Assembly (NCBI GenBank): GCA_965238175.1
Contig: CBDEGZ010000003.1
Coordinates: 800,001-864,000, forward strand
Direction: 5' to 3'
Length of the DNA: 64,000 bases
From: Gammaproteobacteria bacterium
Lineage (GTDB): Bacteria; Pseudomonadota; Gammaproteobacteria; CAJXQU01
This document shows positions 19,812-50,863 of the stretch, in pieces (the first letter of the stretch is position 1; each line of letters begins with the position of its first letter). A program made the translations under genes and the position numbers. The notes under the pieces were generated by a model, which saw nothing but the letters and a program-made list of their open reading frames with translations, was not told where the DNA came from and searched no databases.

Positions 19812-20303
19812 CTATTCGCTATCAGAGGAACCAGTGATCCGGAAAGACAAAGTACGCTTCTCACCCAAACGCATACCTGCACTTTTTTTGTTAGCCGTCA
19901 GTTTGGATGCAAGGTCATCGATATACGCTTTGCCTTTCGTATTCCCCATTAGATAAGCGGCATAAAACCAGCCATACGCATTGATATAGTCATACTCAAC
20001 GCCCTTCCCCCGATCATAAAGCAAACCCAAATTAAGCATCGCATCGGCATTACCCTGCGCAGCAGATTTTTCATACCACTGATGGGCAAGCTTATAATCA
20101 CGATCAATACCCGCACCTAAATAATGCATCAAACCAATATAATTTTGCGCCACAGGATCATTTTTTTCAGCCTCTATGATCCAGATTTGATAGGCCGTTT
20201 CGTACTCACCGTTTTGGAAAGCGACTAATGGATCAGAATTTTGTGAGCAGGAAAATAAAAATAGGGTAAAGACAATAAACCAATATTTTTTGCTATTGGT
20301 CAT
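19812..20303 (-). CDS. Sel1-repeat (SLR/TPR) probable lipoprotein
   Basis: LFSC lipobox-like signal; AQNYIGLMHYLG.G, WYEKSAAQGNADAMLNLG.LY..G.GV Sel1 repeats; 39 bp downstream of the pilin gene. Confidence 0.85.
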   Translation of the reverse strand: MTNSKKYWFIVFTLFLFSCSQNSDPLVAFQNGEYETAYQIWIIEAEKNDPVAQNYIGLMHYLGAGIDRDYKLAHQWYEKSAAQGNADAMLNLGLLYDRGKGVEYDYINAYGWFYAAYLMGNTKGKAYIDDLASKLTANKKSAGMRLGEKRTLSFRITGSSDSE

Positions 20304-20342
20304 TTTGGTTGGTTCAAAAGATCAGAATTAATAAATGGCTGA

Positions 20343-21098
20343 TCAGGGTAGGCGGCCGGCTTGGACCATGCGGTATTTGAGGATATTTGGTGAGATCCAT
20401 ACGATCTGATCATCAAAATCACAAAAATCTTGTGAAGCATTATTATCGTCGCATGAGTTAGATTGATTTTTAGTTACAAACTCACGTATATGAAATATTT
20501 CATCACCGGGTAAAGTTATGTTTTCTAATTCATCTGTTGCATTAGCTGTTGGGGAGGCAATAACGTTTCCTTCTTGATCTGTACCACCATAACCATTTGG
20601 CCCTAGTGAAACTACGACCGCGGGGGCATCTGCGATCATAACCTCTATAGTTCTTGTTAAAGTATTTCTCCTAACGGTGATCTCCCCGTTATCACATAAA
20701 CCAAAAAATGTATCACCCACTACACATCCAATATTTGGAGGTTGTACACTTGTAAATTCTTGTGTGACTGCATAGACATAATATCTTCCCCAAGAATCGA
20801 AAGGGATGACGCCTAAGTCAAGGTTTGGGATGTTTCCAACTACGAAAGATGCTGCCGAATTACATGAAGCTTCCGCTGCACCATCATTATTAGTATCGGG
20901 GCAAGGTAAATGGCCGTTCACGATTGCATAACCAATTAAAGCTTCTTTGATATCTTCAAGTTTCTCACGTTCCTGTTGGATTTTTTTTGAGGAAATACTT
21001 GTAGATAGTGGACCTAATATTCCCCCTAGCATTAAACCAACAATTAACAAAACGATTGTTATTTCTAGTAGGGTGAAACCTTTTGAATATTTATTCAT
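20343..21098 (-). CDS. Type IV pilin-like protein with class III signal peptide
   Basis: Start 21098 overlaps upstream stop (ATGA); KG|FTLLEITIVLLIVG; LPCPD; C-terminal FDDQIVWI...AGRLP. Confidence 0.9.
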   Translation of the reverse strand: MNKYSKGFTLLEITIVLLIVGLMLGGILGPLSTSISSKKIQQEREKLEDIKEALIGYAIVNGHLPCPDTNNDGAAEASCNSAASFVVGNIPNLDLGVIPFDSWGRYYVYAVTQEFTSVQPPNIGCVVGDTFFGLCDNGEITVRRNTLTRTIEVMIADAPAVVVSLGPNGYGGTDQEGNVIASPTANATDELENITLPGDEIFHIREFVTKNQSNSCDDNNASQDFCDFDDQIVWISPNILKYRMVQAGRLP

Positions 21099-23011
21099 GG
21101 TATCCAGCATAGTTCATTAGGGTTGGTTGTACATGTAAAAGCAGCACGGACTTGATCATTAAAATTATCATCAGCTTGTATCAGAGCATCAAAAATATCA
21201 TTTCCGTCGACATTTTCTTTAGCCGTAGGCAATGGGGTTGTATCATGTCCTTCAAAGTAATCCGTTATTGGCGCTCCACCTGTTGTTCGATCTTGGCCTG
21301 TTAATTCACTTCCAGAGTATAAGATTAATGCCCTGAAATCTCCTGAGTTTTCTGGAGCACCAGATCCTGCGGATGTTGCTGCGTAGGTATTTAAAGTTAA
21401 ACAAGGCGGAGTAGTATTACACGTTTGAACTTGGCCGCCAGGTGGGTCATCACCAGAAGCATAAGCAATATAAAAATAATGATGCCAGTTGCCATCTAAA
21501 AACCATTGCGGAATTTCACCTAGATTCGGATCAAGATCATATATGACACTTAAATCAAAAGTATTAGTGGCACTACTAACAGAAGAAAAATCCATAACTG
21601 CGCGTCCAGTTTCTGTGCCTAAACTATCAGTATCGATGATTTCTATCGTTGATGTTGTTGGAGGGGTACTTGTCAGATTAAAAGTTCTAAATCGTGTCCA
21701 ATCAGGTGATGCTGGTAGAGGAAGGACAGAATTTGAGGTGGTAGTGTATATAAAATGATATGTTCTAGTTTCACCGCCAGTTCCAGATTTAGTTGCAGTG
21801 CAGTCTATTTGATCTTTGTTTGTCCATATACAAGAAACTCCTTGAAGAAGGGGGTTGACAAAAATCGGATCTGAGTAAGTAGGGTCTTGAAATACATCTT
21901 CGCAAAGGGCTATTGGGGGTAAAGTCGAACAGGCAGGAACGGTAGGAGAAATTGTACCATCTGGAATATTCCAAGTAGCAGAGAAACTATTTGAAGAAGA
22001 AATTTCATATGTCTCATTTGGAAGATGAATGGGGAGGTGACCTTGCCTAGTGTTTGGAACTCCATTAAAAGTTGAGTTTGGATCTGTTGGGTTAATTGGA
22101 TCGCTATATGGGCTTAACCACGGCAACATCGTATTTATCCTCTGGTAAGTGGACAAGATAGTTGATACTTCGCCTATTGCTCTTTTTGCCGCAGAACTTA
22201 TTAGCTCATCAATCGTTACAAAAACCAATGTATCATTAAACTCATCAGTTTCAATCAGTGTAGTTTTTGAATTGGGATAGATAATAAAATCAAAGTTAGA
22301 CGCTGTGTCAGCATTACTATAGGTTGCTCCTCCTACTGTGACACTATCAAGAAATTCAGAAGCTACAGGTGCATTCCCGTTTCGGTTTTGATTGCTAAGT
22401 GCTTCACCCGGAGCAATCAAAACAAAAGCCACTCTATTTGAAATTTCATTACCATTTTGATCTAGAACAGTGATCCAATCCGTTGTTCTACTAAGTAAAT
22501 CCGGTCCAATTTGACGATAATCTACACCATTATTAAGCATGTTCTTTGATACGGCATACCAAAGTACCTCACCATTAGGATCTTGGTAATTCGTTTTTAA
22601 ACCTCCATATATTGTTGTTCCTGTACATGGGGTGTTTTGACCTCTCCATGGAACTTTACCAAGTAGAAAATTATTTCTGTTAGTACCTGTATCTGCTGGA
22701 TCAAAGTTTCTGCAGTCAGAAAATCCATCATATGGGTTTGTAGTTTCTGATGAGGCGATTCTGTCTGAGAAGGGCATTACGCCGGGGTGAACTGGATGAT
22801 TTAAAGACCAACCTATTAAAGCCTCTTTTGCTTCGTTTAATGCACGCATTGTTATGTGATCACGAAAGGATTGTGTGGCTGCCTTGTTCATTTTAGAGAC
22901 AAGTAAAGCCGATGCGCCTGTGACTAGTAGAAGAACAAACAATAACAGCGCCGCCCCTTTTTGCTTGTTGGGGTTGTTGATTTTGTGAGATCTAAAGCGA
23001 GACATTCTCAC
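21095..23011 (-). CDS. Large PilX/GspK-like minor pilin (putative tip protein)
   Basis: KQKG|AALLLFVLLLV (no Glu5), AL..AKEALIG, LWYAVS, FND motifs; several Cys pairs; 638 aa. Confidence 0.75.
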   Translation of the reverse strand: MRMSRFRSHKINNPNKQKGAALLLFVLLLVTGASALLVSKMNKAATQSFRDHITMRALNEAKEALIGWSLNHPVHPGVMPFSDRIASSETTNPYDGFSDCRNFDPADTGTNRNNFLLGKVPWRGQNTPCTGTTIYGGLKTNYQDPNGEVLWYAVSKNMLNNGVDYRQIGPDLLSRTTDWITVLDQNGNEISNRVAFVLIAPGEALSNQNRNGNAPVASEFLDSVTVGGATYSNADTASNFDFIIYPNSKTTLIETDEFNDTLVFVTIDELISSAAKRAIGEVSTILSTYQRINTMLPWLSPYSDPINPTDPNSTFNGVPNTRQGHLPIHLPNETYEISSSNSFSATWNIPDGTISPTVPACSTLPPIALCEDVFQDPTYSDPIFVNPLLQGVSCIWTNKDQIDCTATKSGTGGETRTYHFIYTTTSNSVLPLPASPDWTRFRTFNLTSTPPTTSTIEIIDTDSLGTETGRAVMDFSSVSSATNTFDLSVIYDLDPNLGEIPQWFLDGNWHHYFYIAYASGDDPPGGQVQTCNTTPPCLTLNTYAATSAGSGAPENSGDFRALILYSGSELTGQDRTTGGAPITDYFEGHDTTPLPTAKENVDGNDIFDALIQADDNFNDQVRAAFTCTTNPNELCWIP

Positions 23012-23015
23012 TTTT

Positions 23016-23633
23016 TTATTTGTTAGGTTTCTCTAACATTTTTTGATAGGAGTCGGTGATTTTTTCGGCTTTTGGATTGAGTGTTTGGCCGACTTTGAGG
23101 CTGACGTCACCGATGTTGATGTCATCGACTTCGACATGTACGTGATCACGTCCAATTCGGTTTGGGTTTACTTTGATGTGTTGCGGTTCAAAGTAACCAT
23201 CGTTGGTGTTGATGCCATTGACCCATGCAGTGCTTCTTCCTCCAGAGCGTTTCACAAAACCGTTGACAGTAATTTTCGGTATTTCGGGTGTAGAAACGGT
23301 AACAATTTCAGGTTTTTTTTGTGTCTTAATGACGATAGGTTCTGGCTTCGGTTGGAACTGAAATTGATCAATCACGTCATGTTTGAATTTTTCTTGTGGC
23401 GGTTCAAATTTACTATGATCGACAATGGTGATCGGCGTATAGGTTTGTTTAGTTGTTTGTTGTTTTTGGGCTGGGTGGCGCAGTCTTTCAAGTGTTGCGC
23501 GTTCACTTGCGGTTGTAAATAAACGTCCTAGGCCTTCTGCGAATGTGCTTGGAGCGAATAGGATGATCATAAGTAGGTTGATCAATAATGAAGGTTTATT
23601 TTTGATCATGTTTTTAAGTGAATTCGTTTTCAT
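23016..23633 (-). CDS. Exported accessory protein of the type IV filament cluster
   Basis: Signal-like segment, LGRLFTT..ER..L, NGFVKRSGG.STAWVNG, LKVGQ; inside the co-oriented cluster. Confidence 0.75.
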   Translation of the reverse strand: MKTNSLKNMIKNKPSLLINLLMIILFAPSTFAEGLGRLFTTASERATLERLRHPAQKQQTTKQTYTPITIVDHSKFEPPQEKFKHDVIDQFQFQPKPEPIVIKTQKKPEIVTVSTPEIPKITVNGFVKRSGGRSTAWVNGINTNDGYFEPQHIKVNPNRIGRDHVHVEVDDINIGDVSLKVGQTLNPKAEKITDSYQKMLEKPNK

Positions 23634-23737
23634 AGAGATCTTTGCAGGAGTAGAGCCTGCCCCACGAGTGAAACGAGTGTTTTGGGTACGTTTTTAACGA
23701 AGCCAGAGGATAAAAGAACAATCGTGCAAAGGTTTCT
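23634..23737. mobile_element. Small MITE-like element with IS5-family-like ends
   Basis: Imperfect terminal inverted repeats AGAGATCTTTGCA / TGCAAAGGTTTCT (11/13) bounding the whole intergenic gap. Confidence 0.5.
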
Positions 23738-24351
23738 CATAATTTGATCTCCTCATTAGCCAGGTTGAGGCTGTACCATTGTAATTCGCAATTGGCACTA
23801 ATATTCGATTTTTCCGGATCAATCTGGATACTTTTATTGGTTCGATTGAAACGGCAACGTTTGATGTTGAACAGGCCTGATGCATCTTTGTTTAATTCGC
23901 TGATCAATTTTGCCAGATCAATTTCATGTAATAGACCAAGGTTGAGATTCATGCTGGTGGCGAAAAGATTATATGAGCCGGTGTCTAGTTTGTAGTCTGG
24001 CAGGTAGGGTTTTCGGGATTCGATCTGATAGCGCATTGCTGGGAGATTGATTCCTTTACCGATGGATTGCAGTGTTTCAATCCAGTTAAGACGTTTTTCT
24101 GATCCGATAATGCCACGGTTGTAGTACTCGATAAAACGTGGGTAGTGTTCTTTGATAATTTTTTCATCGCCATCGACAGACAGGTATTTTTGGCTGACAT
24201 CGCGGAAGTGATTTTGATATTGATTAAATTCAGTTTTCATGTTGTCGCGGAATAAAAAGCTGCCTGCTAGTAGTGCACCAGAGAGAATCAGGCAAACAAA
24301 AAAAGTGAGTATTGAGCTTTGTAGTATTGGCCACTCGATTTTATGTTTCAT
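23737..24351 (-). CDS. Bitopic PilO/GspM-like alignment protein
   Basis: Probable start 24351; N-terminal TM, coiled coil, G.E.RL.WIE.L, LLHE.DL, C.L.W; position after the PilM/N-like gene. Confidence 0.7.
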   Translation of the reverse strand: MKHKIEWPILQSSILTFFVCLILSGALLAGSFLFRDNMKTEFNQYQNHFRDVSQKYLSVDGDEKIIKEHYPRFIEYYNRGIIGSEKRLNWIETLQSIGKGINLPAMRYQIESRKPYLPDYKLDTGSYNLFATSMNLNLGLLHEIDLAKLISELNKDASGLFNIKRCRFNRTNKSIQIDPEKSNISANCELQWYSLNLANEEIKL

Positions 24352-25936
24352 TTTCGACTCCCAAAACAACGGTTAGTGCAAAAATGGCTTCGTGTATTTC
24401 TTGGTCACGCGATTCACCTGAAAGTTGAGATTCTGGGCTGATATCTAATGGTAGACTGTCGATATTAACGTGATGCACATTATCAGCGACTTTCATTGAG
24501 TTCGCAAAGCGTATGACAATCCCCAATGCATTTCGGTAATTTCCATCGAAGGAGGTGATATGACCTTTGATGGTGGCAATTTGGTAGTAGGAGTAGTCGC
24601 CTTTTTCTATTGGGTTTTTGCCATTTTCCCCAAGTGAAATATTATTGATCGGATGCGTATTTGGATCAGAACTTACTACCCAGTCTATGCCATCAATTTG
24701 TATACTGGGATAACGACTGAGCACTTTGCTCACGGTGTTCATCATTAAAAAAGGAGTAGATTTGTGTTTGACCAGAGAATCAATAATGTTTATCGCGTTT
24801 TTGATATCGGCCGGTTGAACAGCTGTCGGCGGCAGATCTTTTTTCGCTATTTCGTATCGCGATTGATAATACTCAGCTTCTTTTGCGGCTTTAACAGACT
24901 GATGTTTTAGTGAAATGCCTGAAATAAAATTATATCCACCCCAGGTGGTCGCACCCAATATCATCATTAAACTGGCTGCATATAATCCGACCCGTGCCTG
25001 GTGCATTGAAAAGTAATGCCGATTTTCATTGGAGCCATAATGATTGCTTGGTGTTTTGGACAACAACATGTGTGCATAGATGTAATCGCTAAACGGGGTT
25101 GACAGCACTCCTTCGACACCCATTTCATGACTTAATGTTGAGACGTCAACCAAATGATAACGAGTCTTTCCAGTGTCTTTAATTCGTGTTTGCAGATCGG
25201 CTAGCATTTCACCGTGAGCAAGAATATAAATATCAAGCGGTTCTTCCCGCGACAGTGTACGTAGATTATTTAAGTAGCGATAAAACTTTTCGAGTTCTGA
25301 TAGAACATAAGGGCCATATGGAGTTGTTCCAAAACGCGGCAATTTAGCCAGACGACTGATCTGAATTTGTTGATCACGAAAGTAGGTTTGTCGTAGTCCG
25401 CTTGAGCCGCCCATGCTAACGAGTAAAGTGTTACTCGATTTTGCATCCAATGGTTTGAGCAAGGCTTTACTCATAATCGGTAAAGAGTAAATGCCAGCAA
25501 GTGGAATTTTATGTTGTTCGAGTAAAGTGATCCATGGTGTGACTGCCGCAGGGTTAGTCAGTGCTGTTAATAATACTTTATCGTCTTTGCGGCCTTCTTT
25601 TTCACGACCTTGAAGCATGTAGTGAGTGTAAGGGGAGTTACGAAAGTTTCGGCTGAGTTTTCGTTCAAGAACGTTTTTGCGATCTGATCCACTGACATGT
25701 GGAACCGTGTCATGGCGGAATTCTTCTTCGACAACATCAACCAGCATGTAAGTTGGTAGTATCGGTGTTTCTTGTAAATAGCGCGTAAAGTGATAACGAC
25801 CTGTATCGTCAGCATCAAACTGGAAGGAATCCGTAATCTCACCATCTTGCCAATGGTAAACCGTCACCGCATCAACAGCGAGGCAAACAGCGCGTTTGGG
25901 GCCGCGACTAAATTTTGATCTTAGCAATGAGATCAT
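24341..25936 (-). CDS. PilM/PilN (GspL)-like fused alignment protein
   Basis: Cytoplasmic N-terminal region (LVDVVEEEFR, GLRQTYF..Q..SRL), TM near residue 320, periplasmic C-terminal region; follows platform gene. Confidence 0.7.
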   Translation of the reverse strand: MISLLRSKFSRGPKRAVCLAVDAVTVYHWQDGEITDSFQFDADDTGRYHFTRYLQETPILPTYMLVDVVEEEFRHDTVPHVSGSDRKNVLERKLSRNFRNSPYTHYMLQGREKEGRKDDKVLLTALTNPAAVTPWITLLEQHKIPLAGIYSLPIMSKALLKPLDAKSSNTLLVSMGGSSGLRQTYFRDQQIQISRLAKLPRFGTTPYGPYVLSELEKFYRYLNNLRTLSREEPLDIYILAHGEMLADLQTRIKDTGKTRYHLVDVSTLSHEMGVEGVLSTPFSDYIYAHMLLSKTPSNHYGSNENRHYFSMHQARVGLYAASLMMILGATTWGGYNFISGISLKHQSVKAAKEAEYYQSRYEIAKKDLPPTAVQPADIKNAINIIDSLVKHKSTPFLMMNTVSKVLSRYPSIQIDGIDWVVSSDPNTHPINNISLGENGKNPIEKGDYSYYQIATIKGHITSFDGNYRNALGIVIRFANSMKVADNVHHVNIDSLPLDISPESQLSGESRDQEIHEAIFALTVVLGVENET

Positions 25937-27116
25937 AAATGGGTCCTAATATGGAGAACATTATCCACCCAACCAGCAAACCGATCAAAACGGTTAGTGC
26001 GGGTCCTATTATTTGTTGTAACTGCTCAACAGACTCCTTTACTTCACGATTATAAAAGTAACTTACATTTTGCAGAGACTTTTCCAGTGTTCCAGTGTTT
26101 TCACCTACACGTAGCATGCGTAACACCAATGGTGGGAATAATGTCGTTTTCCCAAAGGCAGCGCTAATTCCTTCACCATCTGCAATCAATCTTCCTGCAT
26201 CTTTGATTGCACTCGCTATCGCTGCGTTACCAACGATGGCTTCCCCAGATTTTACACACTCAATAACGGTAATACCTGATGCGTACATAATAGCGAAATA
26301 ATTTGTAAACCGAGTCATCACCATCTTTTTCAGGATTGGGCCGAATACCGGTATCTTTAATTTTAAACCATCAAACCAACGACGAAAATCTGTACTCGTA
26401 TTGAGCCCAAACATAACAGCGATAAAAATAATAAAAGGTAACAGGATAAACAGGTACCAAAATTCTGTAAAGAAATTGGAAACAGCGATCAATAGTCGCG
26501 TGTGAGAGGGTAATTCTTCACCCATGTTTTGCATAAATTGCATTAATTGTGGGACAAGATAGAGCATTAAAAAAAAGACAACGCCGATGATAATCGTGAA
26601 AACAAACACTGGATAAATAAACAGTTTTTTAGTATTTGCAGCTTGCTCGTCCTGCCATTTCAGGTTCTCGGTGATATGTTCTAAAACTTGTACCAGTTCA
26701 CCACTTTGTTCTCCAGCTCGGATCAAATTAACGAATACTGTCCCGAATTCATTTGGAAAGTCAGCCATGGCCTCGGAAAGGCTTTTTCCACCGCCGATAG
26801 TTTCGATCATGGCGATGATCACATCTTTTAAACGTGGGCTGTCAACACTATCGCGAAGATCACTCAATGCCTCAAGGATAGGAACACCGGCACGTAATAG
26901 TTGATCGAGATGAAAACAAAAAGTGATCAAATCGGCACGTTTGAGTTTTTGTTTTAGAAGAAAAACGCCTCTATTTTTATGGATCTCCTTAAAGGAAATT
27001 AAATCCAGCCCAAGTCTTGTTAGTCTAAACTCGAGATCACCAGGATTCAGGGCATTTGATCGGCCGTTTACATATTTTCCTGCTTTATCAATCGCTTTGT
27101 ATTTAAAAAGCTCCAT
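25908..27116 (-). CDS. Type II secretion F family/PilC platform protein
   Basis: FKYKAID..G, L..LL.AGVPILEAL, AGEQSGEL, YP.F, GE.TG.L, PIYDL; three TM segments. Confidence 0.95.
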   Translation of the reverse strand: MELFKYKAIDKAGKYVNGRSNALNPGDLEFRLTRLGLDLISFKEIHKNRGVFLLKQKLKRADLITFCFHLDQLLRAGVPILEALSDLRDSVDSPRLKDVIIAMIETIGGGKSLSEAMADFPNEFGTVFVNLIRAGEQSGELVQVLEHITENLKWQDEQAANTKKLFIYPVFVFTIIIGVVFFLMLYLVPQLMQFMQNMGEELPSHTRLLIAVSNFFTEFWYLFILLPFIIFIAVMFGLNTSTDFRRWFDGLKLKIPVFGPILKKMVMTRFTNYFAIMYASGITVIECVKSGEAIVGNAAIASAIKDAGRLIADGEGISAAFGKTTLFPPLVLRMLRVGENTGTLEKSLQNVSYFYNREVKESVEQLQQIIGPALTVLIGLLVGWIMFSILGPIYDLIAKIKI

Positions 27117-27121
27117 TAGAA

Positions 27122-28828
27122 CTAGCCTATGCGCTCGGTAAGATCGATCACGCGTGAAATTTCATCCAGGCTGGTTGAGCCTTCCAGGATTTTTCTGATC
27201 CCCATGTCCGCAAGGGTCTTAAACTCTTTTGCTTCTGCCGCTTCGTGTAGTTCTTTTAACGTTGCATTTGCAGCAATCAGCTCATCAATTTCTTGATCAA
27301 ACTTGAGAATTTCCATGATTGCTAAGCGGCCGGTGTAACCATGATGGTCACACTCATCACAGCCTTTTGCACGATAAATTTTGATTGGTTTAGTACCGGT
27401 TTTTATACCAAGCAGGCGACGCTCAATTTCTAAAGGCTCATAAGATTCTTTGCAATGCTCGCAAAGCTGTCGTACTAATCGTTGAGCCATTACACCGATA
27501 ATATTGCCGGCCATAATCTCTGGGCGTATGCCGATATCTATCAAACGTGGAATGGCGCCCATGGAGGAGTTCGTATGCAGTGTGGTAAAAACCTGATGGC
27601 CTGTCATGGCAGCGCGAAAAGCCATGCTGGCGGTGTCTTCATCACGAACCTCACCGACCAAGATGATATCTGGATCTTGGCGTAGAATTGATCTGATACC
27701 GCTAGCGAAATCGAGTCGTACTGCTTCATTAACTGACGTTTGTCGGATCATACTCAATGGATATTCCACCGGATCTTCCAACGTCATAATATTTACAGAT
27801 TCGGTATTTAGATGCGAGAGCAAAGAGTAAAGCGTTGTTGTTTTACCACTGCCGGTTGGGCCAGTGACTAAGACAATCCCATTTGGTCGGGCAACCATGA
27901 TTTTGAGTAGATCTAAAACATCTTCGTCTAGGCCGAGATCTTCGAGTTTAACAAGGCCTTTTAAGCGATCAAGAATACGCAGGACAATGTTTTCGCCATG
28001 AACGGTTGGGATAGTAGAAACACGAAAATCGATCGGACGACCTGAAAAAGTAAGTGTGATCCGGCCATCTTGCGGTTTACGCGTTTCTGCAATGTCGAGT
28101 CCCGCCATTACCTTTAAGCGAACTGCAATCGCTGACCAATAGTTTTTATGTAAACTACGGACTTGGCGTAATACACCATCAACTCGAAAACGAAAACGTA
28201 GGAAACCTTCTTCGGGTTCAAAGTGTATATCTGAGGCATTGCGTTTTACTGCATCGGATAATAATGCGTTGACTAAACGCACGACAGGTTGGCTATACTC
28301 GTCGGTATCACCTTCGAGACTGTCATAATCAATCTCGCCCGTTTCAATCTCTTTAAGAATGCCATCTACGGATAATTCAAATCCATAGAATTGATCAATG
28401 GCTTTCTGGATTTCTGCTTCACCAGCGAGTGAAACGTCTATCTCTACATCGCCACCCATCAATGCGTTTATTTGATCAATTGCGACAACATTGAATATAT
28501 CAGCCATCGCAATACTCAGATGGTTTCGATTTTTGTCGTAGGTCAGTGGAAGCAATTTGTAACGACGAGCAAGCTCTTTGGGAATTCTTTTTATTGCTTC
28601 GCTATCGGGTACAACATTGGATAAATCGGTACTTTGTTGTCCGAGAGCACCACCTAAGACATCTCGAATAATTGCCTCTGTCGCAAATCCTAAACGTACA
28701 AGAATTCTACCCAGATGTTCATTGTGCTTTTTCTGTTCAATCAGCGCGATGCGGAGTTGATCATTACTGATCACACCATTTTCAATCAGTATTTCGCCGA
28801 TGCGGAGGGAATTATTCTGTGAATTCAT
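27122..28828 (-). CDS. GspE/PilB/MshE assembly ATPase with MshEN-type N-terminus
   Basis: RIGEILIENGVI..QL..AL.EQ, ASDIHFEP, GPTGSGKTTT, EDPVE, LRQDPDII.VGEVRD, TGH...TLH, CxxC..CxxC. Confidence 0.96.
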   Translation of the reverse strand: MNSQNNSLRIGEILIENGVISNDQLRIALIEQKKHNEHLGRILVRLGFATEAIIRDVLGGALGQQSTDLSNVVPDSEAIKRIPKELARRYKLLPLTYDKNRNHLSIAMADIFNVVAIDQINALMGGDVEIDVSLAGEAEIQKAIDQFYGFELSVDGILKEIETGEIDYDSLEGDTDEYSQPVVRLVNALLSDAVKRNASDIHFEPEEGFLRFRFRVDGVLRQVRSLHKNYWSAIAVRLKVMAGLDIAETRKPQDGRITLTFSGRPIDFRVSTIPTVHGENIVLRILDRLKGLVKLEDLGLDEDVLDLLKIMVARPNGIVLVTGPTGSGKTTTLYSLLSHLNTESVNIMTLEDPVEYPLSMIRQTSVNEAVRLDFASGIRSILRQDPDIILVGEVRDEDTASMAFRAAMTGHQVFTTLHTNSSMGAIPRLIDIGIRPEIMAGNIIGVMAQRLVRQLCEHCKESYEPLEIERRLLGIKTGTKPIKIYRAKGCDECDHHGYTGRLAIMEILKFDQEIDELIAANATLKELHEAAEAKEFKTLADMGIRKILEGSTSLDEISRVIDLTERIG

Positions 28829-28863
28829 ACCTGAATTTATCAGCGTCTAAATAGGTCAGACGG

Positions 28864-30759
28864 TTAATTATTAACAATGCCGGAAAGTTTCTGGATCCGC
28901 GCGAGCACTTGAGAAGTGTTGAAGCTAACGGGAGCTTGCTGGGCCAGTTTTAATGCCGATCTATAGTAGCCTAACGCAGCCTTTGGTTGACTCATTTGGT
29001 CAAGACTTACAGCAAGATTATAAGCGTAATCGGCATTTTTTTGATCGGTATTAAAAGCCTCAAAAAAAGATTGCTGTGCTTCAGGCCAACGGGCTTGTTT
29101 TGCATAAAAACTGCCCAAGCTAAAATGTACTTGTGGAGAGTCCGGATTTTGGTCTAGTGACAATTTCAGCTGACTTTCGTTTACATTCCCTCCAGCGTTT
29201 CCTTGAAGATTAAACAACGCCGCTTTTACGATTTGATCCTGCGGGTTTTGTTGTAATAAATGTTGATAGTGGTGATAAGCAGTTTCGTAATTACCTTCCA
29301 TGACAGCAATGGCTGCGACACCAAGTAGCGCATCGCGATTATCTGGTCGACGGCTTAAAACTTTTCGATAGGCTGTTTTTGCATTCAAATAATCTCCAGA
29401 TAGATAGGCGCGGTATGCGGTGGTGAGATCTGAATTACTTGTTCGACGAATTTGACCCTTGGTGATTTTGATCGCACTTTTCGGTAGGGTTAGGCCTTCC
29501 GCAAAATCTTCGGCCGACATAACCTCGATAGGTTGATTACTGATAGTTGTTTGATTTTCTAGTGTGAACTCACTTTCAAGAAAATCGCCTGTTGAAGCTG
29601 TTTTTGTTAATTGATCAGAGCGAACGAAAATTCTTTCGGTTTTTGACGTTTTATCTGGAACAGATTTTCCGAATTGAGAGCCCATTTCGGAAAAATCCAC
29701 AACTTCATGGTCTGTTAGTGCGTAACTTGGAAGACCTTTTTTTTGTATTGACAGAGCTTCAGTAGCAGGAATTGAACGTATAACCACAGGTTCAGGAGTT
29801 ATAAAAACAGTTTCTGTTACAACCGGAGCTTTCTGGTTACTTGGAACATTTTCAAATGTTTGCTGGGTTTTCTCAGTTTGTTCAGAAACTGATGGTGCAA
29901 TCTCTTTAACCACCGCTGTAAGAATTGGATCTTCAAGTTCTACCGGGGTTGTGTCTGGTTCAAAAGGGGGCGCTATTGTTGTCACGGTATCTACATCAAC
30001 TTCAACTGTTTGCGGTTGTTCGTCGGGTGAGTCAACCATCGTTGCAACAGTTGGTAATGCCGTTGGTACATTGATCGTGCTTGGTGTTATGTAGGAATAG
30101 TAAAGTGCCACAGCGCCTAAACCCAATGCTAAAAAGAGCGTTCCTAAAAGAGCGTATTTGGCTAGACCTGTAGAGGCTTTTCTTGAATTACCCGCAGTGA
30201 AAATGGTATGTGCGGTAACATGGGTCGCAGACAGATTCAACGGTGAGGTGCTGGTGACGGAATGTTCTGTAACATCAGGCGCAATGGCAGCATCTATCGC
30301 GCTTTCATCCATCGTAATGGACTGGGACGCCTCGAAATAATCTTTCAATGATGTTTGGATTGCCCTTTCCGAAGGTAAGGTAGCATCGTGATCAAAATCT
30401 GATCTTTGTGAACCTGAATCCGTTTGTAAGGTGAGGTCATCATAAGTTGAACTCACGGCTTTTTCTGGCAGATCTATTATTACTTCTTTTATGGTGGTGT
30501 CATCTAACTCAGGGGCTTGATCGCGGATAGATGTAGTTTCAGGAGATGTGTTTTGTGATTTTGGTTCAAGTTCTAATTCACTCGTTTCAAACGCCCAATT
30601 TTCATCTTGATCCGAAACTGATTTGATCGGTGTATGTTTTTTTTCTAAAGGATCCGTAATCTCTTGCTCGAGTGAAGCTGATTTGTCTTCTGGGTTATTC
30701 TCAGCCGCACGCTGTTTTTCCCTTTCAGCTTTTTTAAGCGCATCCATTAACAAGCTCAT
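28864..30759 (-). CDS. Membrane-anchored TPR protein (ExeB-like N-terminus; MshN-like)
   Basis: MSLLMDALKKAE start, acidic linker, TM near residue 200-222, Pro/Thr-rich stalk, C-terminal TPRs (W.EAQQ.FF.A, YNLAVSLD). Confidence 0.8.
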   Translation of the reverse strand: MSLLMDALKKAEREKQRAAENNPEDKSASLEQEITDPLEKKHTPIKSVSDQDENWAFETSELELEPKSQNTSPETTSIRDQAPELDDTTIKEVIIDLPEKAVSSTYDDLTLQTDSGSQRSDFDHDATLPSERAIQTSLKDYFEASQSITMDESAIDAAIAPDVTEHSVTSTSPLNLSATHVTAHTIFTAGNSRKASTGLAKYALLGTLFLALGLGAVALYYSYITPSTINVPTALPTVATMVDSPDEQPQTVEVDVDTVTTIAPPFEPDTTPVELEDPILTAVVKEIAPSVSEQTEKTQQTFENVPSNQKAPVVTETVFITPEPVVIRSIPATEALSIQKKGLPSYALTDHEVVDFSEMGSQFGKSVPDKTSKTERIFVRSDQLTKTASTGDFLESEFTLENQTTISNQPIEVMSAEDFAEGLTLPKSAIKITKGQIRRTSNSDLTTAYRAYLSGDYLNAKTAYRKVLSRRPDNRDALLGVAAIAVMEGNYETAYHHYQHLLQQNPQDQIVKAALFNLQGNAGGNVNESQLKLSLDQNPDSPQVHFSLGSFYAKQARWPEAQQSFFEAFNTDQKNADYAYNLAVSLDQMSQPKAALGYYRSALKLAQQAPVSFNTSQVLARIQKLSGIVNN

Positions 30760-30771
30760 ACCATAAGCTCC

Positions 30772-32505
30772 TTACTTAGGTACCGGCAGAGGAGTCGACA
30801 CACTATCGTGTAAAAAACGTCGATAAGGTGATAAGTCACCTGTCAGGCTGGCATTGTGTATGACGACAGGGCGTAAGAAAATGATCAATTCGGTTTTGGT
30901 ATTTTGGAAATCTCTTTGTTTGAATGCATTACCTACACCGGGTATATCTTCGAGGCCTGGTACACCATTAGTGCTGCGATCATAGTTATCGGTCATCAAG
31001 CCACCTAAAATTGCAACTTGGCCGCTGTTAACTTTTAGGATGGATTCCATCTCTCGAACAGCAATAACAGGGATTAGACTTACAATATTTGGAAAGTCTG
31101 CATTCGTAGATTGAGCCGCAATCAATCTAGGAGCAGGATCAGGTACTCTATCGATAACCCTTGAAATTGTTGGCCTGACATTGAGAGTAACTGCTTGGTT
31201 CTCATTAATCTGAGGTGTTACCGCCATGACTAGACCAACAGGAACCGTGTGTACTTCAGATTCTATCGATTGGAGATTGTTTCCTGCACTAGTACCACTT
31301 GCCTGACTTATTTGTGAGTCGATTGTGAAGTAGACTTGATTTTCAACCACCTTAAGAACAGCTGTTTGGTTATTCAGGGTCATCAGCTTAGGGCTAGAAA
31401 GTACCTTTGCATCACCGAATGTATTAAGTAATTGTATGGTTGCTCTAAAATCGGCGGGCTGAAGAGTAGTGGTAGTAACACCGTTGGTTGTCGTAGTAGA
31501 GACGGTATTGTTAGTCTGAATTCTTCCTTGAAAAATTCCATTCGCTGAATCGAAGTTGTTGGTAAGGGTTTGTCCAATTTCTATGAGACTATTGCCACCA
31601 ATCAAGGCGCTCCAGTCGACCCCTGCCTGAAAACGATCACTTAGTGTTACTTCAACAATGGTCGCTTCTATTAGTACCTGGCGTTGAGCATTCTGAAGAA
31701 CTTGATCAATGAATGTCTGGATATCTAAATGTTGTAGCGATGTTGCCTTAACGTTAATCACACCACTTTCAGCATTAACGATAACGGATTCAGATCCAAG
31801 TTGACCAGAACCTGATGAGCCTGAATTATTCTCTCCTAGTATCCCTGAAATATTGCTGGCTAATGTTTCCCAGAAATGATGTGTTGATGTACTTTTAACT
31901 GCCGTTGTAGAATTATTTTCACCACTGGAACCGCCGCCAGTTGATGTCACATCTACCGTACCTGTGTTCGCAATTTGAGTTGAAATACTGACTTCACCAT
32001 TCGTATCCCTTGAGATATTTACGTAATCGACTTTATAGGTGCGAAAATAGGGATCATCTGGCGAGATATATAAATTATTACCATCAAGTTCATATCGAAG
32101 CTTGGCTTGCCGCGAAATACGTTCGAGAATTTGTGGCAAGGTTTGTTCGACAGCATTGAGTGTCACCAAACCTTCAATATCCGAATCCACATCAATATTT
32201 AGTGATGCATCTCTTGCCAGTGCAAACAGTAGTTCTTTTACAGGGACATCGTTTACAACAACCGTGTATCGCTCAAGATCTTGCTCTATTGGTTGTGGTA
32301 GGGGTGGTGGTAAAAAAGCTTTTTGATCGACAATTTTTGGAATTTCGTCGTTTGAAGTATTCGACACTTGTGGGTCAATCGAGATATGACCTTCCGAAGG
32401 TTGATGTGGTTCTGGAATACTCGATGCGCACCCAGCTATAGATACAGCTAGTATCAAAATATAAAGCGGGTAAATTTTAGTTTTTCCCTTTAATATCATA
32501 TTCAT
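30772..32505 (-). CDS. mshL: MshL-type lipoprotein secretin
   Basis: IAGC lipobox; RQVLIEATIVEV.L....GVDW, VLSSPKL.TLNNQ.A, P.L..IP..G..F, KTELIIFLRP. Confidence 0.88.
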   Translation of the reverse strand: MNMILKGKTKIYPLYILILAVSIAGCASSIPEPHQPSEGHISIDPQVSNTSNDEIPKIVDQKAFLPPPLPQPIEQDLERYTVVVNDVPVKELLFALARDASLNIDVDSDIEGLVTLNAVEQTLPQILERISRQAKLRYELDGNNLYISPDDPYFRTYKVDYVNISRDTNGEVSISTQIANTGTVDVTSTGGGSSGENNSTTAVKSTSTHHFWETLASNISGILGENNSGSSGSGQLGSESVIVNAESGVINVKATSLQHLDIQTFIDQVLQNAQRQVLIEATIVEVTLSDRFQAGVDWSALIGGNSLIEIGQTLTNNFDSANGIFQGRIQTNNTVSTTTTNGVTTTTLQPADFRATIQLLNTFGDAKVLSSPKLMTLNNQTAVLKVVENQVYFTIDSQISQASGTSAGNNLQSIESEVHTVPVGLVMAVTPQINENQAVTLNVRPTISRVIDRVPDPAPRLIAAQSTNADFPNIVSLIPVIAVREMESILKVNSGQVAILGGLMTDNYDRSTNGVPGLEDIPGVGNAFKQRDFQNTKTELIIFLRPVVIHNASLTGDLSPYRRFLHDSVSTPLPVPK

Positions 32506-32630
32506 CGCTTACGATGCTCCTCAATCGAACGAACAAGATACCATATTTTTAGTCTGGAATAGAGAATTAACGCACAAATTTTCTATCCTTAGGAAAATGG
32601 TCAGATATTTGTCACAAGGTGTTATGTGGG

Positions 32631-33683
32631 TTACTGAAAAGACGTAATTTCCTGATCCAATTTTTTCCAGGTAGAGGAACTGGATTCAGCTTGATGAGAA
32701 TACAGGTTTTTATTTGGGTTATGAGTAGAACTCTTTTCGAAAGGTTGGTTCTCAATAACAAGATTATTTCTATTGTTGTTATACCACCAAGCCGTTCCAG
32801 CAATGACAGCTAATAATATTACCAGAGCTAGAATGATCCAGTACCTTGAGTTGCCAGAATCAATGCCTGGCATGTCTGAAAAATCAGAATCATTAACAGC
32901 GGTTTTGACGTGTTTCAGGGTGACAACTCGATCATTTTCTGCATAAGCTGCGAGACAGGCTTTGTCACCGAGAATATTGATGCGACGCAATAAGCCACCG
33001 GATCGTTTCCATATTTGTTTAATAGCCTTCTGATCAAACAGATCCATTCCTTGATAGCCACTGGCTCGCATCCGCGAATTCATATAATCACGGACTTCAT
33101 ACTCTTGAAGAGGTGCCAGGTTAAAACTATATGTGATCCGTTCTTTTAACTGTCTGATATGTTGTTTTGAAAGATTTTCATCCAGTTCTGGTTGTCCAAA
33201 CAAAACGATTTGTAGCAATTTATCCTGCTTTGTTTCCAGGTTACTCAAAAGGCGTAATTCTTCTAATGTTTCGATCGGCATGCTTTGCGCTTCTTCTACA
33301 AACATTACAACTCGATTGTTGTTGGCATGCTGCTCAACAAGATAGTCTTGAATTTTATGCATCGCTTTGAGATTCGGATCATGTGGTTCGACATCGAGAT
33401 TCATTTCAAAGCCGATGGCGTGTAACAGATTTTCCGGAGTCAAACTTGGGTTGGCGAGGTAGACTACTTGAACATCATTTGGAAGGCTGTCCTCCAGCAT
33501 GCGGCAGAGCATGGTTTTTCCGCTGCCTACTTCACCAACGACTTTTACAATTCCCTCACCACTCGTGACAGCGTATGTGAGTGCTTGTAAGACAGCACCT
33601 CGATTTGCTCCGGGGAAAAACAAATTTGTATCCGGCGTTATCTTAAAGGGTGACTGTTTTAATCCAAAATACGCTTTATACAT
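32631..33683 (-). CDS. ExeA/GspA/MshM-family AAA ATPase
   Basis: MY..YFGL...PF.ITPD, GEVGSGKT, EEAQ, LEELRLLSNLE, LFGQPEL, G..R.IN; C-terminal TM. Confidence 0.92.
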   Translation of the reverse strand: MYKAYFGLKQSPFKITPDTNLFFPGANRGAVLQALTYAVTSGEGIVKVVGEVGSGKTMLCRMLEDSLPNDVQVVYLANPSLTPENLLHAIGFEMNLDVEPHDPNLKAMHKIQDYLVEQHANNNRVVMFVEEAQSMPIETLEELRLLSNLETKQDKLLQIVLFGQPELDENLSKQHIRQLKERITYSFNLAPLQEYEVRDYMNSRMRASGYQGMDLFDQKAIKQIWKRSGGLLRRINILGDKACLAAYAENDRVVTLKHVKTAVNDSDFSDMPGIDSGNSRYWIILALVILLAVIAGTAWWYNNNRNNLVIENQPFEKSSTHNPNKNLYSHQAESSSSTWKKLDQEITSFQ

Positions 33684-33698
33684 AATTTATTTTTTTGT

Positions 33699-35147
33699 TT
33701 AGTTTTGTTGTTTTACTTCGATGGATAGACGTTGTATCTTACTGTATAACGTTGTGCGATTGATCCCTAATATTCTGGCTGCATGGCTTAAATTTCCATG
33801 ACTGTTTTTTAATGCAATGGTGATAAACCGTTTTTCCCATTCATCCAGTTTTTCATCCAGACGGAAAGTCTCTGAATGTAATAATTCACGTTCGCCAAGC
33901 AGATCCAAGTCATTTTGATCGGATTCGGGTACATAAACCGCAAGTTCCATTTCTGCCTCTAGTTGTCGTAGGTTAACGGGTGAACCGGGATATTTTGATC
34001 CGAGGCGGATAACAATATTTCTCAATTCGCGTACATTGCCAGGGAAAGAATATTGTAGTAACCGTTGCCTTGCTTCTTTATCCAGAATGAATGCGGGAAA
34101 GGTTCCTGCATAGAGTTGTTGGAAATAATCTAACAAAAGTAAACAGTCATCACTTCTCTCACGAAGAGGAGGTACTTTAATCGTTAAAACGCTGAGCCTA
34201 TGATAAAGATCTTGACGGAAAGACCCTTTGCGCACTTCTTCTGGTAGTTCACGATTTGTTGCTGCGACAATTCGAGCATCAGAGTGTCGAGATTGGGTTT
34301 CACCAATACGGTAATACTCACCGTTTTCTAAAACTCTTAGCAGCTTTGCTTGCAGTTCTATGGGTAACTCACCTACTTCATCAAGTAATAAAGTCCCTTT
34401 GTCAGCTTGTTCAAAGAAGCCAGGTTTAGCTGAATCTGCACCAGTAAATGCGCCTTTAGCGTGACCAAATAGTTGCGCTTCTAAAAGATCGGCGGGAAAT
34501 GCGGCGCAGTTGATCGTTAATAGAGGGTGTTTTGATCGTTCGCTTTTACTATGTAGATATTCGACAACGAGTTCTTTACCACTACCAGACTCACCTTCGA
34601 TCAAAACTGGAAAGGGAGTATCGGCGAATTGCTTGATCAAAGCACGCAGGGTCTTTATTACTGGACTTTGCCCAATAATGCCGAGATTTTCCTTTTTGAC
34701 AATCGTGTTTTCTTGCTCGGCATCTAACAGCATCAATTGATGTTGTAATCGCGTTTTGAGCAAATGGACATCACAAGGTTTCGGCACAAAGTCGATCGCA
34801 CCAAGGGTCATTGCATGTTGAATATTGCTACGTTTACTTTGGCCAGAAAGCACTAATATTTTGATCGCCGGGTTAAATGCTAATAATTCAGTGATTAAAT
34901 TAAACCCTTCTTCTGGTGTGTGTGGTGTCGGTGGCAAACCTAGATCGACGAGTGCAAGGGATGGAAGCGTTGAACGATTTTGGAGTAGGTTTTTGGCTTC
35001 TTCGCGAGTATTGGCAGTGAGCACATCAAATGTTTCTTGCAATACGAAACCTAACGATTCAATGATCAAATGATCATCATCAATGAGTAATAACTGAGGT
35101 TTTTCAGCGAGATTTGATCCTGCTAGAACGTTTGTGTCTGTTGCCAT
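33699..35147 (-). CDS. Sigma54-dependent response regulator (REC-AAA-Fis HTH), PrsR-like receiver
   Basis: LLIDDD, DLGLPP..P.EGF, GESGSGKE, GAFTGA, LDEVGE, FPGNVREL, LGINRTTLY; probable start ATG 35147 after GGAG. Confidence 0.92.
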   Translation of the reverse strand: MATDTNVLAGSNLAEKPQLLLIDDDHLIIESLGFVLQETFDVLTANTREEAKNLLQNRSTLPSLALVDLGLPPTPHTPEEGFNLITELLAFNPAIKILVLSGQSKRSNIQHAMTLGAIDFVPKPCDVHLLKTRLQHQLMLLDAEQENTIVKKENLGIIGQSPVIKTLRALIKQFADTPFPVLIEGESGSGKELVVEYLHSKSERSKHPLLTINCAAFPADLLEAQLFGHAKGAFTGADSAKPGFFEQADKGTLLLDEVGELPIELQAKLLRVLENGEYYRIGETQSRHSDARIVAATNRELPEEVRKGSFRQDLYHRLSVLTIKVPPLRERSDDCLLLLDYFQQLYAGTFPAFILDKEARQRLLQYSFPGNVRELRNIVIRLGSKYPGSPVNLRQLEAEMELAVYVPESDQNDLDLLGERELLHSETFRLDEKLDEWEKRFITIALKNSHGNLSHAARILGINRTTLYSKIQRLSIEVKQQN

Positions 35148-35185
35148 TACTTCTCCCAACTTTGTGGCATGACAAAGCTGATAAC

Positions 35186-35243
35186 AGTATATGCAATCTT
35201 GAATATATTGTCACAGTGAGGAATGAACCCACTGTGACAATAT
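35186..35243 (-). promoter_or_regulatory. Sigma70-like promoter whose -35 lies inside a 14-bp perfect inverted repeat
   Basis: Minus strand GTGACA-17 nt-TATACT (35214-35186); ATATTGTCACAGTG (35205-35218) / CACTGTGACAATAT (35230-35243). Confidence 0.55.
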
Positions 35244-50570: not shown

Positions 50571-50863
50571 TAGGGGTTGTTGATTTTTCAAGGGCATTAT
50601 TAACTGCTAGAACGCTTTTTGTCCCAACAAGGCAGAAGGAGCGAGGTTTAGTCATTACTAAATGAACGACCTTAAGTAAATGATTAATAAAACGCGGTTG
50701 GGGCAAAAAAGCGTCCCAGCCCTACGGGTTAAGGTTAAAAATGCTTCTATCTGTGTTGGTCATCACTTATTTGGAATGACTAAACCTCGTTCTTCGCGCC
50801 CTTGATAGAAGCATTTTTAGGCTCAAAAGTTAGTGCCCATGAAAGACCGACCAACAACCCCTA
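50571..50863. mobile_element. 293-bp structured MITE-like element
   Basis: Perfect 12-bp terminal inverted repeats TAGGGGTTGTTG / CAACAACCCCTA with YTAG at both ends; two internal hairpins; no coding capacity. Confidence 0.75.

Follow-up and report, generated by a model that had tools for sequence, protein, structure and literature searches.

A cluster of eleven co-oriented genes on the minus strand of a 64,000-nucleotide stretch of gammaproteobacterial DNA (contig CBDEGZ010000003.1, positions 800,001 to 864,000; hereafter the window, whose numbering is used throughout) encodes the parts of a type IV filament machine. With a confidence a little above even, we interpret it as a conserved machine that is related to the mannose-sensitive hemagglutinin (MSHA) pilus, its nearest known relative, but distinct from it; its function is predicted. 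Cells use type IV filament machines to adhere, move, take up DNA and secrete proteins, and the classification of these machines is built on a few cultured models. The cluster gives a concrete definition to one unnamed group among them, with a fixed 11-gene order in dozens of genomes, three parts without a family name and a pilin pair of its own. Family assignment of the window proteins with the Pfam and NCBIfam libraries places it in the type IV filament superfamily, since the Pfam domains N_methyl, T2SSE, T2SSF and Secretin are all recovered above their cut-offs. From its upstream end, the cluster encodes a sigma54-activating response regulator (R), an MshM/ExeA-like ATPase (M), a lipoprotein secretin (L), a membrane protein with tetratricopeptide repeats (N), the assembly ATPase (E), the inner-membrane platform (F), three putative alignment-complex proteins (I531, J210 and K205), a giant pilin-family protein (P638) and a prepilin (G255). 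Together with the adjoining gene for a Sel1-repeat lipoprotein (S163), these make up 12 co-oriented open reading frames (ORFs) spanning 19812-35159, mostly spaced by 0-40 nt or overlapping, with exceptions of 125 nt between M and L and 103 nt between J210 and K205. An earlier description of this DNA from its letters alone (the sequence-only reading) had listed twelve co-oriented, mostly tightly coupled genes, and the ORF list bears this out; its calls of a sigma54 regulator, an AAA ATPase, a lipoprotein secretin, a PilB/GspE ATPase, a PilC/GspF protein and a Sel1 lipoprotein are confirmed by Pfam and NCBIfam. I531, J210, K205 and P638 have no family match in either library.

The evidence for conservation starts from I531 (24341..25936, minus strand, as for all cluster genes). 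At E<=0.001 it has 360 relatives among 7998 scored candidates; a Pfam domain is found in none of them and, whenever a source gives a name, it is 'hypothetical protein'. A 22-sequence I531 alignment scanned against one genome per species gave 218 confirmed places, the best 80 of which were fetched with 10-kb flanks and constitute the 80 related loci discussed below; the window proteins were compared with the stop-to-stop ORFs of these loci by BLAST at a threshold of E<1e-5. The loci share the order R-M-L-N-E-F-I531-J210-K205-P638-G255, and the complete ordered set of eleven is present in 24 of the 80. Individually, I531 is detected in 80 loci, F in 77, E and J210 in 74 each, N in 69, P638 in 59, L in 58, G255 in 54, K205 in 50, M in 38 and R in 37. 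These counts are reduced by the many loci (lengths 1,984-21,701 bases) that end at contig edges, and some copies of K205 are missed at this threshold because the protein is very divergent. An apparent change of order occurs in two loci (L008 and L079), each at a contig edge, and R, where present, always heads the order. Since the same gene order recurs in related loci, the arrangement is far beyond chance. This agrees with the earlier suppositions that such clusters are widespread, that they are recorded as strings of hypothetical genes and that syntenic loci could be collected. The carriers are nearly all metagenome-assembled genomes labelled Gammaproteobacteria, with the most distant few labelled Burkholderiales, Usitatibacter or Noviherbaspirillum. 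In the literature searched (supplements aside) no description of this filament variant was found. S163 (19812..20303, 163 aa, Pfam Sel1 7.4e-16), which the sequence-only reading had counted as part of the system, has a BLAST homolog in none of the 80 loci and is therefore a local neighbor rather than a component.

The affinity to MSHA is seen in the secretin L (30772..32505, 577 aa) and in M and N, whose genes lie on either side of it; as MSHA reference we used the locus in a 4.94 Mb Aeromonas caviae record. L carries a lipobox (SIAGC) and a Pfam Secretin domain (1.2e-37). The best of nine secretin models is MshL (TIGR02519) with 245.7 bits, 4.5 bits short of its cut-off of 250.2; the scores for GspD (TIGR02517, 163.1 versus a cut-off of 351.35), PilQ (TIGR02515, 113.9 versus 284.35) and SctC (106.9) are lower. 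BLAST likewise gives L 150-152 bits over its full length with two MshL proteins, versus 100 bits with GspD, and L is 24.7% identical over its full length to Aeromonas MshL, which is also a lipoprotein. M (32631..33683, 350 aa) contains an AAA_22 domain (Pfam 8.5e-28) and one C-terminal membrane helix at about residues 281-300, and is 42.6% identical to Aeromonas MshM over 270 aa (E 4e-79) and 38.3% to the homolog from Legionella adelaidensis; neither Pfam nor the sequence itself reveals a peptidoglycan-binding domain in it. N (28864..30759, 631 aa), an MshN/GspB-type membrane protein, opens with the peptide MSLLMDALKKAE, followed by one membrane helix and periplasmic repeats (TPR families, residues 436-620). 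The peptide is found in 51 of 61 complete orthologs and is missing where M is missing, and a similar N-terminal peptide starts the MshN of Aeromonas and that of the L. adelaidensis MSH-like locus. Beyond this, BLAST finds no significant match between N and MshN, and Pfam no T2SSB domain in N; of its earlier label as an ExeB-like/TPR protein, the repeats are confirmed, and the ExeB likeness gains no Pfam support. The co-variation of the peptide with the presence of M bears on how the MshM/MshN secretin helpers work: M would bind the N-terminal peptide of N, and the two might help secretin assembly, as is thought for ExeAB and MshMN.

The L. adelaidensis locus itself (L082:2436-13860, NZ_LR134433.1), whose annotation is mostly hypothetical or 'type II secretion system protein', is MSH-like. 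It encodes three small pilins, a 563-aa pilin-like protein, a PilM-like protein, PilN, two unnamed proteins, MshL, an AAA ATPase and an MshN-like protein, together with an ATPase of the GspE/PulE type, which shares 49.9% identity with Aeromonas MshE.

The assembly ATPase E (27122..28828, 568 aa) combines an MshEN domain for cyclic di-GMP (c-di-GMP), a P-loop core and a CxxC...CxxC element. Pfam recognizes T2SSE at 2.2e-131 and MshEN at 3.1e-16, and the NCBIfam c-di-GMP motif model NF053729 scores 61.2 bits, above its cut-off of 38. Over its full length E is 38.8% identical to Aeromonas MshE, and it stays below the equivalog cut-offs of both GspE (TIGR02533, 553.3 versus 630.25) and PilB (TIGR02538, 531.1 versus 675.65). 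In the part of Wang et al. (2016; PMC5013675) that defines it, the MshEN domain consists of a pair of motifs, each with 24 residues and the pattern RLGxx(L/V/I)(L/V/I)xxG(L/V/I)(L/V/I)xxxxLxxxLxxQ, joined by a five-residue linker. Residues 9-32 of E fit motif I; R9 is conserved in 62 of the 65 family sequences, and G11, L14, G18 and Q32 are invariant.

Phylogenetic analysis sets these motors apart. A search with E against 1.84 billion cluster representatives returned 67,984 matches at E<=0.001, the best 150 of which were taken; the FastTree set of 164 sequences comprised 65 family members, 95 of these representatives (500-700 aa, the 55 outside this length range having been dropped) and four anchors. 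In this tree the family ATPases, 65 in all, come out as one monophyletic group that includes none of the representatives. The two MshE anchors pair up outside a larger clade (support 1.0) containing the family together with most representatives, and PilB and GspE fall further out. An IQ-TREE analysis of a 44-sequence subset (LG+G4, 1000 ultrafast bootstraps, UFBoot) recovers 13 family members and three representatives as a clade with UFBoot 100, outside which the Aeromonas and L. adelaidensis MshE proteins form a pair, also with UFBoot 100; the nodes separating the family from this pair have values of 96, 100, 82, 65, 89, 98 and 100. The motor ATPases thus form a clade of their own, separate from the two MshE proteins sampled. 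This matches the proposal in the sequence-only reading of a distinct filament branch and the tree by which it was to be checked, insofar as the family lies outside the MSHA, type II secretion system (T2SS) and type IVa pilus (T4aP) anchors in a tree of the ATPase with few anchors; it also accords with the facts that no T2SS or T4aP equivalog cut-off is reached and that three components lack a named family.

The platform protein F (25908..27116, 402 aa) matches Pfam T2SSF in two stretches (4.5e-50), scores 294.3 bits against the GspF model (TIGR02120, cut-off 424) and is 28.7% identical to Aeromonas MshG. With the parts so far described, the likeness to MSHA comprises an MshL-like lipoprotein secretin, an MshM-like ATPase, an MshN-like repeat protein with a similar N-terminal peptide, an MshEN motor, an MshG-like platform and a single locus without prepilin peptidase and PilT. 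A second E-like ATPase is absent from the window and is found in a single one of the 80 loci (L078), and a PilD/PppA-type prepilin peptidase was found neither in the window nor in the ORFs of the 80 loci. The passages of Denise et al. (2019; PMC6668835) on MSH loci describe all of them as being without a prepilin peptidase and nearly always as a single locus. Hence, missing PilT and peptidase do not separate the cluster from MSHA, because MSHA loci themselves lack both. Two arguments behind the earlier statement that the locus fits none of the known systems, the lack of PilT and of a peptidase, thus apply to MSHA as well, and the statement underrated the kinship in MshM, MshN, MshL and MshEN.

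It might then be asked if the cluster is an ordinary, merely divergent MSHA locus that existing models file under MSH. As set out in the same source (Denise et al., 2019; PMC6668835), the MSH model takes mshA, E, G, L and M as mandatory and accepts three mandatory genes with four genes in total, and the window has counterparts for four of these five (mshE, mshG, mshL and mshM) in a single peptidase-less locus with a secretin only 4.5 bits short of the MshL cut-off. Nevertheless, we regard this explanation as improbable. The window contains no small MshA-type pilin and no counterpart of MshB, C, D, F, O, P or Q, and I531, J210, K205 and P638 have no BLAST match to Aeromonas MshH-Q. In the places of MshI, J and K stand proteins without detectable sequence similarity to them, although I531 has the PilM fold that would be expected of MshI. 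The gene order is M-L-N-E-G-I-J-K here, with F in the place of G, versus I-J-K-L-M-N-E-G in Aeromonas; a sigma54 response regulator occupies the place of Aeromonas MshH; and the pilins, of 255 and 638 aa, belong to one family of their own. Moreover, in the trees supported nodes stand between the ATPase family and the MshE clade of Aeromonas and L. adelaidensis, which does not include it; the MshEN motif II of the family is also altered (see below). In the classification of Denise et al. (2019; PMC6668835), 101 of 309 representative systems are no more than 'generic'.

The proteins expected to connect platform and secretin are those without named families. The AlphaFold2 model of I531, built from the 22-sequence alignment (pLDDT, the predicted local confidence, 80.9), comprises an actin-like domain at residues 14-300, a 60-residue helix spanning the transmembrane and coiled region, and a C-terminal alpha/beta domain. 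Although a profile search gave no PDB sequence match, Foldseek against the PDB places PilM of P. aeruginosa and Thermus on top (5eoy, 5eou and 2ych; E ~1e-10, probability 1.0), followed by FtsA and then by the cytoplasmic domains of EpsL/GspL (E 3e-8 to 2e-7), PilM being the better match. This PilM-like fold identifies I531, on the evidence of the predicted model, as a fused PilM-PilN or GspL-like protein, the PilN-like alpha/beta domain being visible in the model only; its earlier description as PilM/N-like is thus upheld by fold alone. J210 (23737..24369, 210 aa) is a bitopic membrane protein with an N-terminal membrane helix and an invariant cysteine pair, whose matches in the ESM Atlas are only 'hypothetical protein' clusters. 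K205 (23016..23633, 205 aa) has a signal peptide, a linker and, at its C-terminus, a beta-rich domain, and shows the conserved motif LGRLFTTPxER. By position and topology, J210 could take a PilO/GspM-like role (MshJ in MSHA) and K205 that of a PilP/GspC analog (MshK in MSHA). Of their earlier labels, 'PilO-like' and 'exported accessory', the topology is borne out and sequence searches add no family support. Such clusters offer natural experiments on the replaceability of alignment-complex parts.

The pilins likewise form a distinctive set. G255 (20343..21110, 255 aa) has a class III signal (KG/FTLLE) and is the sole prepilin motif in the 64 kb window by motif scan. It matches Pfam N_methyl (9.9e-06) and, weakly, the GspG (TIGR01710, 42.5 bits versus a cut-off of 88.85) and GspH (37.5 versus 80) models, and it keeps the cleavage site, Glu5, the helix-breaking proline and a conserved C-terminal ...RLP. 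It matches solved pilins in the alpha1 helix only, and Aeromonas Msh pilins in the N-terminal helix only. P638 (21095..23011, 638 aa) is without Glu5 (QKG/AALLL), but its N-terminal ~270 residues are homologous to the entire G255 in a profile-profile comparison (hhalign, probability 99.5%, E 3.9e-23). This module is followed by a C-terminal extension of ~360 residues for which there is no PDB fold match. Its AlphaFold2 model (pLDDT 73.4, pTM 0.75, N-terminal helix 17-70) yields no Foldseek match to the PDB at E<=0.001, and its sequence no match in Pfam or the PDB; the orthologs range from ~415 to 1139 residues. Both proteins had been called pilin-like beforehand, which N_methyl supports for G255 and the homology to G255 for P638.

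The cluster has a fuller form in many relatives. Downstream of G255 there is often an opposite-strand multi-pass histidine kinase; the other genes there encode an ABC-2-like membrane protein, a helical, membrane-anchored protein that is conserved and belongs to no family, a second pilin and an ABC ATPase, for example in L060:8815-11974, L032:15275-20319 and ~40 other loci. Counts were drawn from the 52 loci with a complete G255. Where the downstream sequence of these reaches 3 kb or more (46 loci), 41 carry at least one of the two membrane genes and 34 the kinase; where it reaches 6 kb or more (22 loci), the second pilin is present in 18 and the ABC ATPase in 16. L002, the closest relative of the window, lacks the whole module, as do L004 and L045, while L026 and L069 have the kinase only. 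The second pilin, ~225 residues when mature, shows a C-terminal cysteine pair and the N-terminus G/FTLVEIAIVLVIIGLLLGGILKGQELI; with G255 and solved pilins it shares only the alpha1 helix. The best 120 of its more than 7,996 matches are all at least 71% identical, and the only name among these 120 is 'prepilin-type N-terminal cleavage/methylation domain-containing protein'.

This second pilin appears to be under sigma54 control. The pattern TGGCAC-N5-xTGC begins 76-87 nt upstream of the Gly(-1) codon in 20 of 29 second-pilin genes; with the criterion used (GG and GC intact, <=3 mismatches), chance would give 0.019 per locus, or 0.54 in 29 loci. Among loci that allow the presence of R to be judged, those with R have the motif in place in 11 of 14 cases, with L020 and L017 having it 135 nt and 120 nt upstream, respectively, and L012 not at all; where R is absent, it is in place in none of five. 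R (33699..35159, 486 aa) is an NtrC-type response regulator with a receiver domain, an AAA+ domain with GAFTGA and a Fis-type helix-turn-helix (Pfam Sigma54_activat 1.7e-66, Response_reg and HTH_8). The pattern of R and promoter in relatives makes R, with the neighboring kinase, the candidate activator of the second pilin: R likely activates it there, with the kinase probably as its partner, as far as the sequences of the relatives allow this to be judged. The arrangement recalls T4aP of the PilS/PilR type, in which PilS/PilR control pilA; the resemblance, seen in relatives only, is that a pilin with a C-terminal cysteine pair follows a sigma54 promoter and is accompanied by a kinase and a sigma54 regulator. 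The ABC-type genes beside the pilin gene, again in relatives only, resemble in gene position the PilGHI ABC set, which according to the cluster description in PMC6060248 lies beside pilA in the Myxococcus xanthus pil cluster. Otherwise, the likeness to T4aP lies in the PilM fold of I531 and the PilB-/PilC-level similarity of E and F. The differences are scores below cut-off for PilB and PilQ, the lack of PilT, the fusion of PilM and PilN, the lack of detectable PilO/PilP similarity and the absence of the kinase/promoter/ABC module from the window. Full forms thus present a testable circuit of kinase, sigma54 regulator, conserved promoter and conserved pilin, plus a predicted c-di-GMP input at the motor.

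In a subgroup of the loci (L043, L054, L068, L071, L074, L076 and L078), R and M are missing ahead of the secretin. In the same subgroup N is short or without the MSLLMDALKKAE peptide, the kinase is absent and the second pilin, if present, has no sigma54 motif; parts expected to cooperate vanish together.

Several observations weigh against the interpretation as an MSHA-related filament machine. First, the bit scores of E in pairwise BLAST are about equal for MshE (371), GspE (364), the L. adelaidensis ATPase (358) and PilB (338), and F is tied between PilC (184) and MshG (183), with GspF at 140. Second, at the base of the IQ-TREE phylogeny the order of MshE, PilB and GspE is unresolved (UFBoot 30-59), and the anchors of the trees are only two MshE, one GspE and one PilB. 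With so few anchors, the position supported for the family is outside the sampled MSHA, T2SS and T4aP groups, rather than sister to MSHA. Third, in MshEN motif II the hydrophobic core is kept, but R38 is changed to H in 50 of the 65 family sequences and Q61 to A or V in 63, the window protein having H38 and A61. Given this altered motif, c-di-GMP binding by E, predicted from its sequence, is likely but not assured. Fourth, the alignment-complex roles of J210 and K205 gain nothing from homology searches: a PDB profile search finds nothing for J210, and hhalign against MshJ and GspM gives probabilities below 1% (GspM 0.4%); K205 has no PDB profile match and only unnamed clusters in the ESM Atlas, while hhalign aligns its C-terminal motif to the HR segment of GspC at a probability of 5% and gives <=5% for an MshK-like protein. 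Fifth, R and the sigma54 motif are weakly associated, because the five R-less loci represent at most two clades and are not independent. In the window itself a sigma54 pattern scan gave 181 matches versus 176.6 expected, none well placed, and the second pilin, the kinase and the ABC-type module were not found there by prepilin motif scan and tblastn. Lastly, G255 shares 29.7% identity over 118 aa with GspG of E. coli, a likeness that fits a pseudopilus better, and the high conservation of the second pilin would equally fit a periplasmic pseudopilus better than an exposed pilus.

These last points lead to the alternative of a T2SS-like machine, in which G255 capped by P638 would make up a short pseudopilus in the periplasm by which folded proteins are pushed through the secretin, with I531 as GspL, J210 as GspM, K205 as GspC and M/N as ExeA/ExeB. 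The shared features are a secretin, a GspE-type ATPase with a zinc-finger-like CxxC pair, a GspF-type platform, a single fused protein that is GspL-like by its predicted fold (with EpsL/GspL also among the Foldseek matches of I531), a GspG-like pilin (GspG being also its top NCBIfam model), a large subunit that, like GspK, has no Glu5, and an ExeA-like ATPase with a membrane partner. Further, the top NCBIfam scores of E and F are for GspE (553.3) and GspF (294.3), there is no retraction ATPase, and a second pilin at least 71% identical over its best 120 clusters is what would be expected of a non-exposed subunit. Even so, we consider this alternative unlikely. The equivalog scores for GspE, GspF, GspD and GspG are all below cut-off, and there is no match to GspC, H, I, J, K or M. 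N lacks T2SSB, M lacks a peptidoglycan-binding domain, the motor carries MshEN, and the secretin, nearer to MshL than to GspD, is with M and N closer to MSHA parts. In both trees E. coli GspE is the most distant anchor. Finally, the cluster has no conserved neighbor that could be a substrate, the Sel1 protein S163 being found in 0 of the 80 loci.

A different concern is the short form of the cluster in the window, from which the second pilin, the kinase and the ABC-type genes are missing. No prepilin peptidase is encoded in the locus, so the window system must rely on genes elsewhere, for the peptidase at least. Its filament would thus be either built from G255 or dependent on genes elsewhere in the genome. 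This makes doubtful the claim of the sequence-only reading that the system is self-contained. Its further claim of a dedicated sigma54 activator holds as to the conserved adjacency of R and the promoters in relatives, and is not borne out within the window cluster, where no sigma54 promoter was found. One might go further and see a decaying remnant, in which the second pilin, kinase and ABC-type genes have been lost and the rest builds no filament. The module found downstream of G255 in 41 of 46 relatives is indeed absent from the window and L002, in both of which typA comes directly after the cluster, and no sigma54 promoter is detectable in the window for R to act on. We nevertheless judge decay to be very improbable: all 11 ORFs are intact and tightly spaced, the core genes are 51-89% identical to their counterparts in L001 and L002, and the motifs are kept, including Glu5 and the cleavage site of G255, the P-loop and MshEN motif I of E and the N-terminal peptide of N. 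The missing genes may also sit elsewhere in the 3.33-Mb contig.

A promoter-like site and a set of family names were considered and set aside. A sigma54-like AGGCTC-N5-CTGCA at 23643-23658 on the minus strand (3 mismatches, GG/GC intact) lies ~10 nt ahead of the K205 start, which is too close for a normal leader, and the overlap of J210 and K205 in relatives means that the site is not conserved; no conserved sigma54 site was seen ahead of R, M or L in the related loci. A link to PEP-CTERM sorting was suggested by the best NCBIfam names PrsR for R (TIGR02915, 362.6 versus a cut-off of 502.6), pepcterm_ATPase for M, PrsT for N and PrsK for the kinase of the relatives; all score far below their cut-offs, and no exosortase was seen in the window.

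Returning to the MSHA-related machine, its parts can be arranged in a predicted mechanism. F, I531, J210 and K205 would form the platform and the link to the secretin, with J210 and K205 in the places of PilO/GspM and PilP/GspC. P638, which is without Glu5 like GspK- and PilX-type subunits, might cap and prime the filament with G255, and E would extend it at high c-di-GMP. In most relatives the bulk subunit could be the very conserved second pilin, whose sigma54 promoter would be switched on by R and the neighboring kinase, much as PilS/PilR act on pilA. As to its use, we lean towards a c-di-GMP-controlled surface attachment filament over a secretion piston. Arguments for a pilus are the MSHA-like parts, the sigma54-controlled pilin and its C-terminal disulfide; arguments for a pseudopilus are that G255 resembles GspG and that the second pilin is so highly conserved. 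Since the carriers are mostly uncultured environmental Gammaproteobacteria, the system may be relevant to how cells in sediments and groundwater attach or release exoproteins.

A bolder proposition is that the cluster defines a type IV filament family at the level of a class, on par with MSH, T2SS and T4bP. Such a family would have a new alignment complex (a fused PilMN and two proteins of unnamed families), its own two-member pilin family with a giant cap subunit of new fold and, in full forms, a very conserved 225-residue pilin served by a dedicated kinase/sigma54 circuit and an ABC-type module. The family would be frequent among uncultured Gammaproteobacteria of sediment, soil and groundwater, with a role other than MSHA-type adhesion or classical type II secretion. 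We put this forward tentatively, as a possibility that we ourselves doubt.

The surroundings of the cluster are those of a housekeeping region. On the downstream side Pfam and NCBIfam identify typA, dtd and tatD, on the upstream side ahcY and metK, and the G+C content runs across the cluster without a break at 0.40-0.46. The ORF of R extends to 35159 with a TTG start, and position 35147, where the sequence-only reading had placed the end of the cluster, is an in-frame ATG 12 nt inside it. Between ahcY and R, at 35208-35240 on the minus strand, there is a perfect inverted repeat whose arms of 11 bp enclose a spacer of 11 nt (TTGTCACAGTG...CACTGTGACAA). It lies 35-65 nt past the ahcY stop, and its right arm overlaps the best sigma70-like match before R (-35 at 35214); it could be the ahcY terminator or an operator.

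Elsewhere in the window, scans for Rfam families and tRNAs found none. The sole window match of tblastn with the ABC ATPase of the relatives is at 56515-57129 (30% identity). A three-gene ABC-2 set lies on the plus strand at 56485-59305, with the best NCBIfam names GldA, GldF and GldG, all below cut-off; it is probably unrelated to the cluster. On the minus strand at 50861-53269 there is an 802-aa ORF whose residues 348-791 match the phosphoglucomutase/phosphomannomutase PgmG, and whose first ~345 residues match no NCBIfam model at E<=1e-10. Finally, chromosome-sized records almost without a gene table are filed among plasmids, including 4.94 Mb from Aeromonas caviae, 3.97 Mb from Acinetobacter baumannii and 2.63 Mb from Acetoanaerobium (NZ_AP026896.1, NZ_CP064203.1 and others); these are usable as reference genomes.

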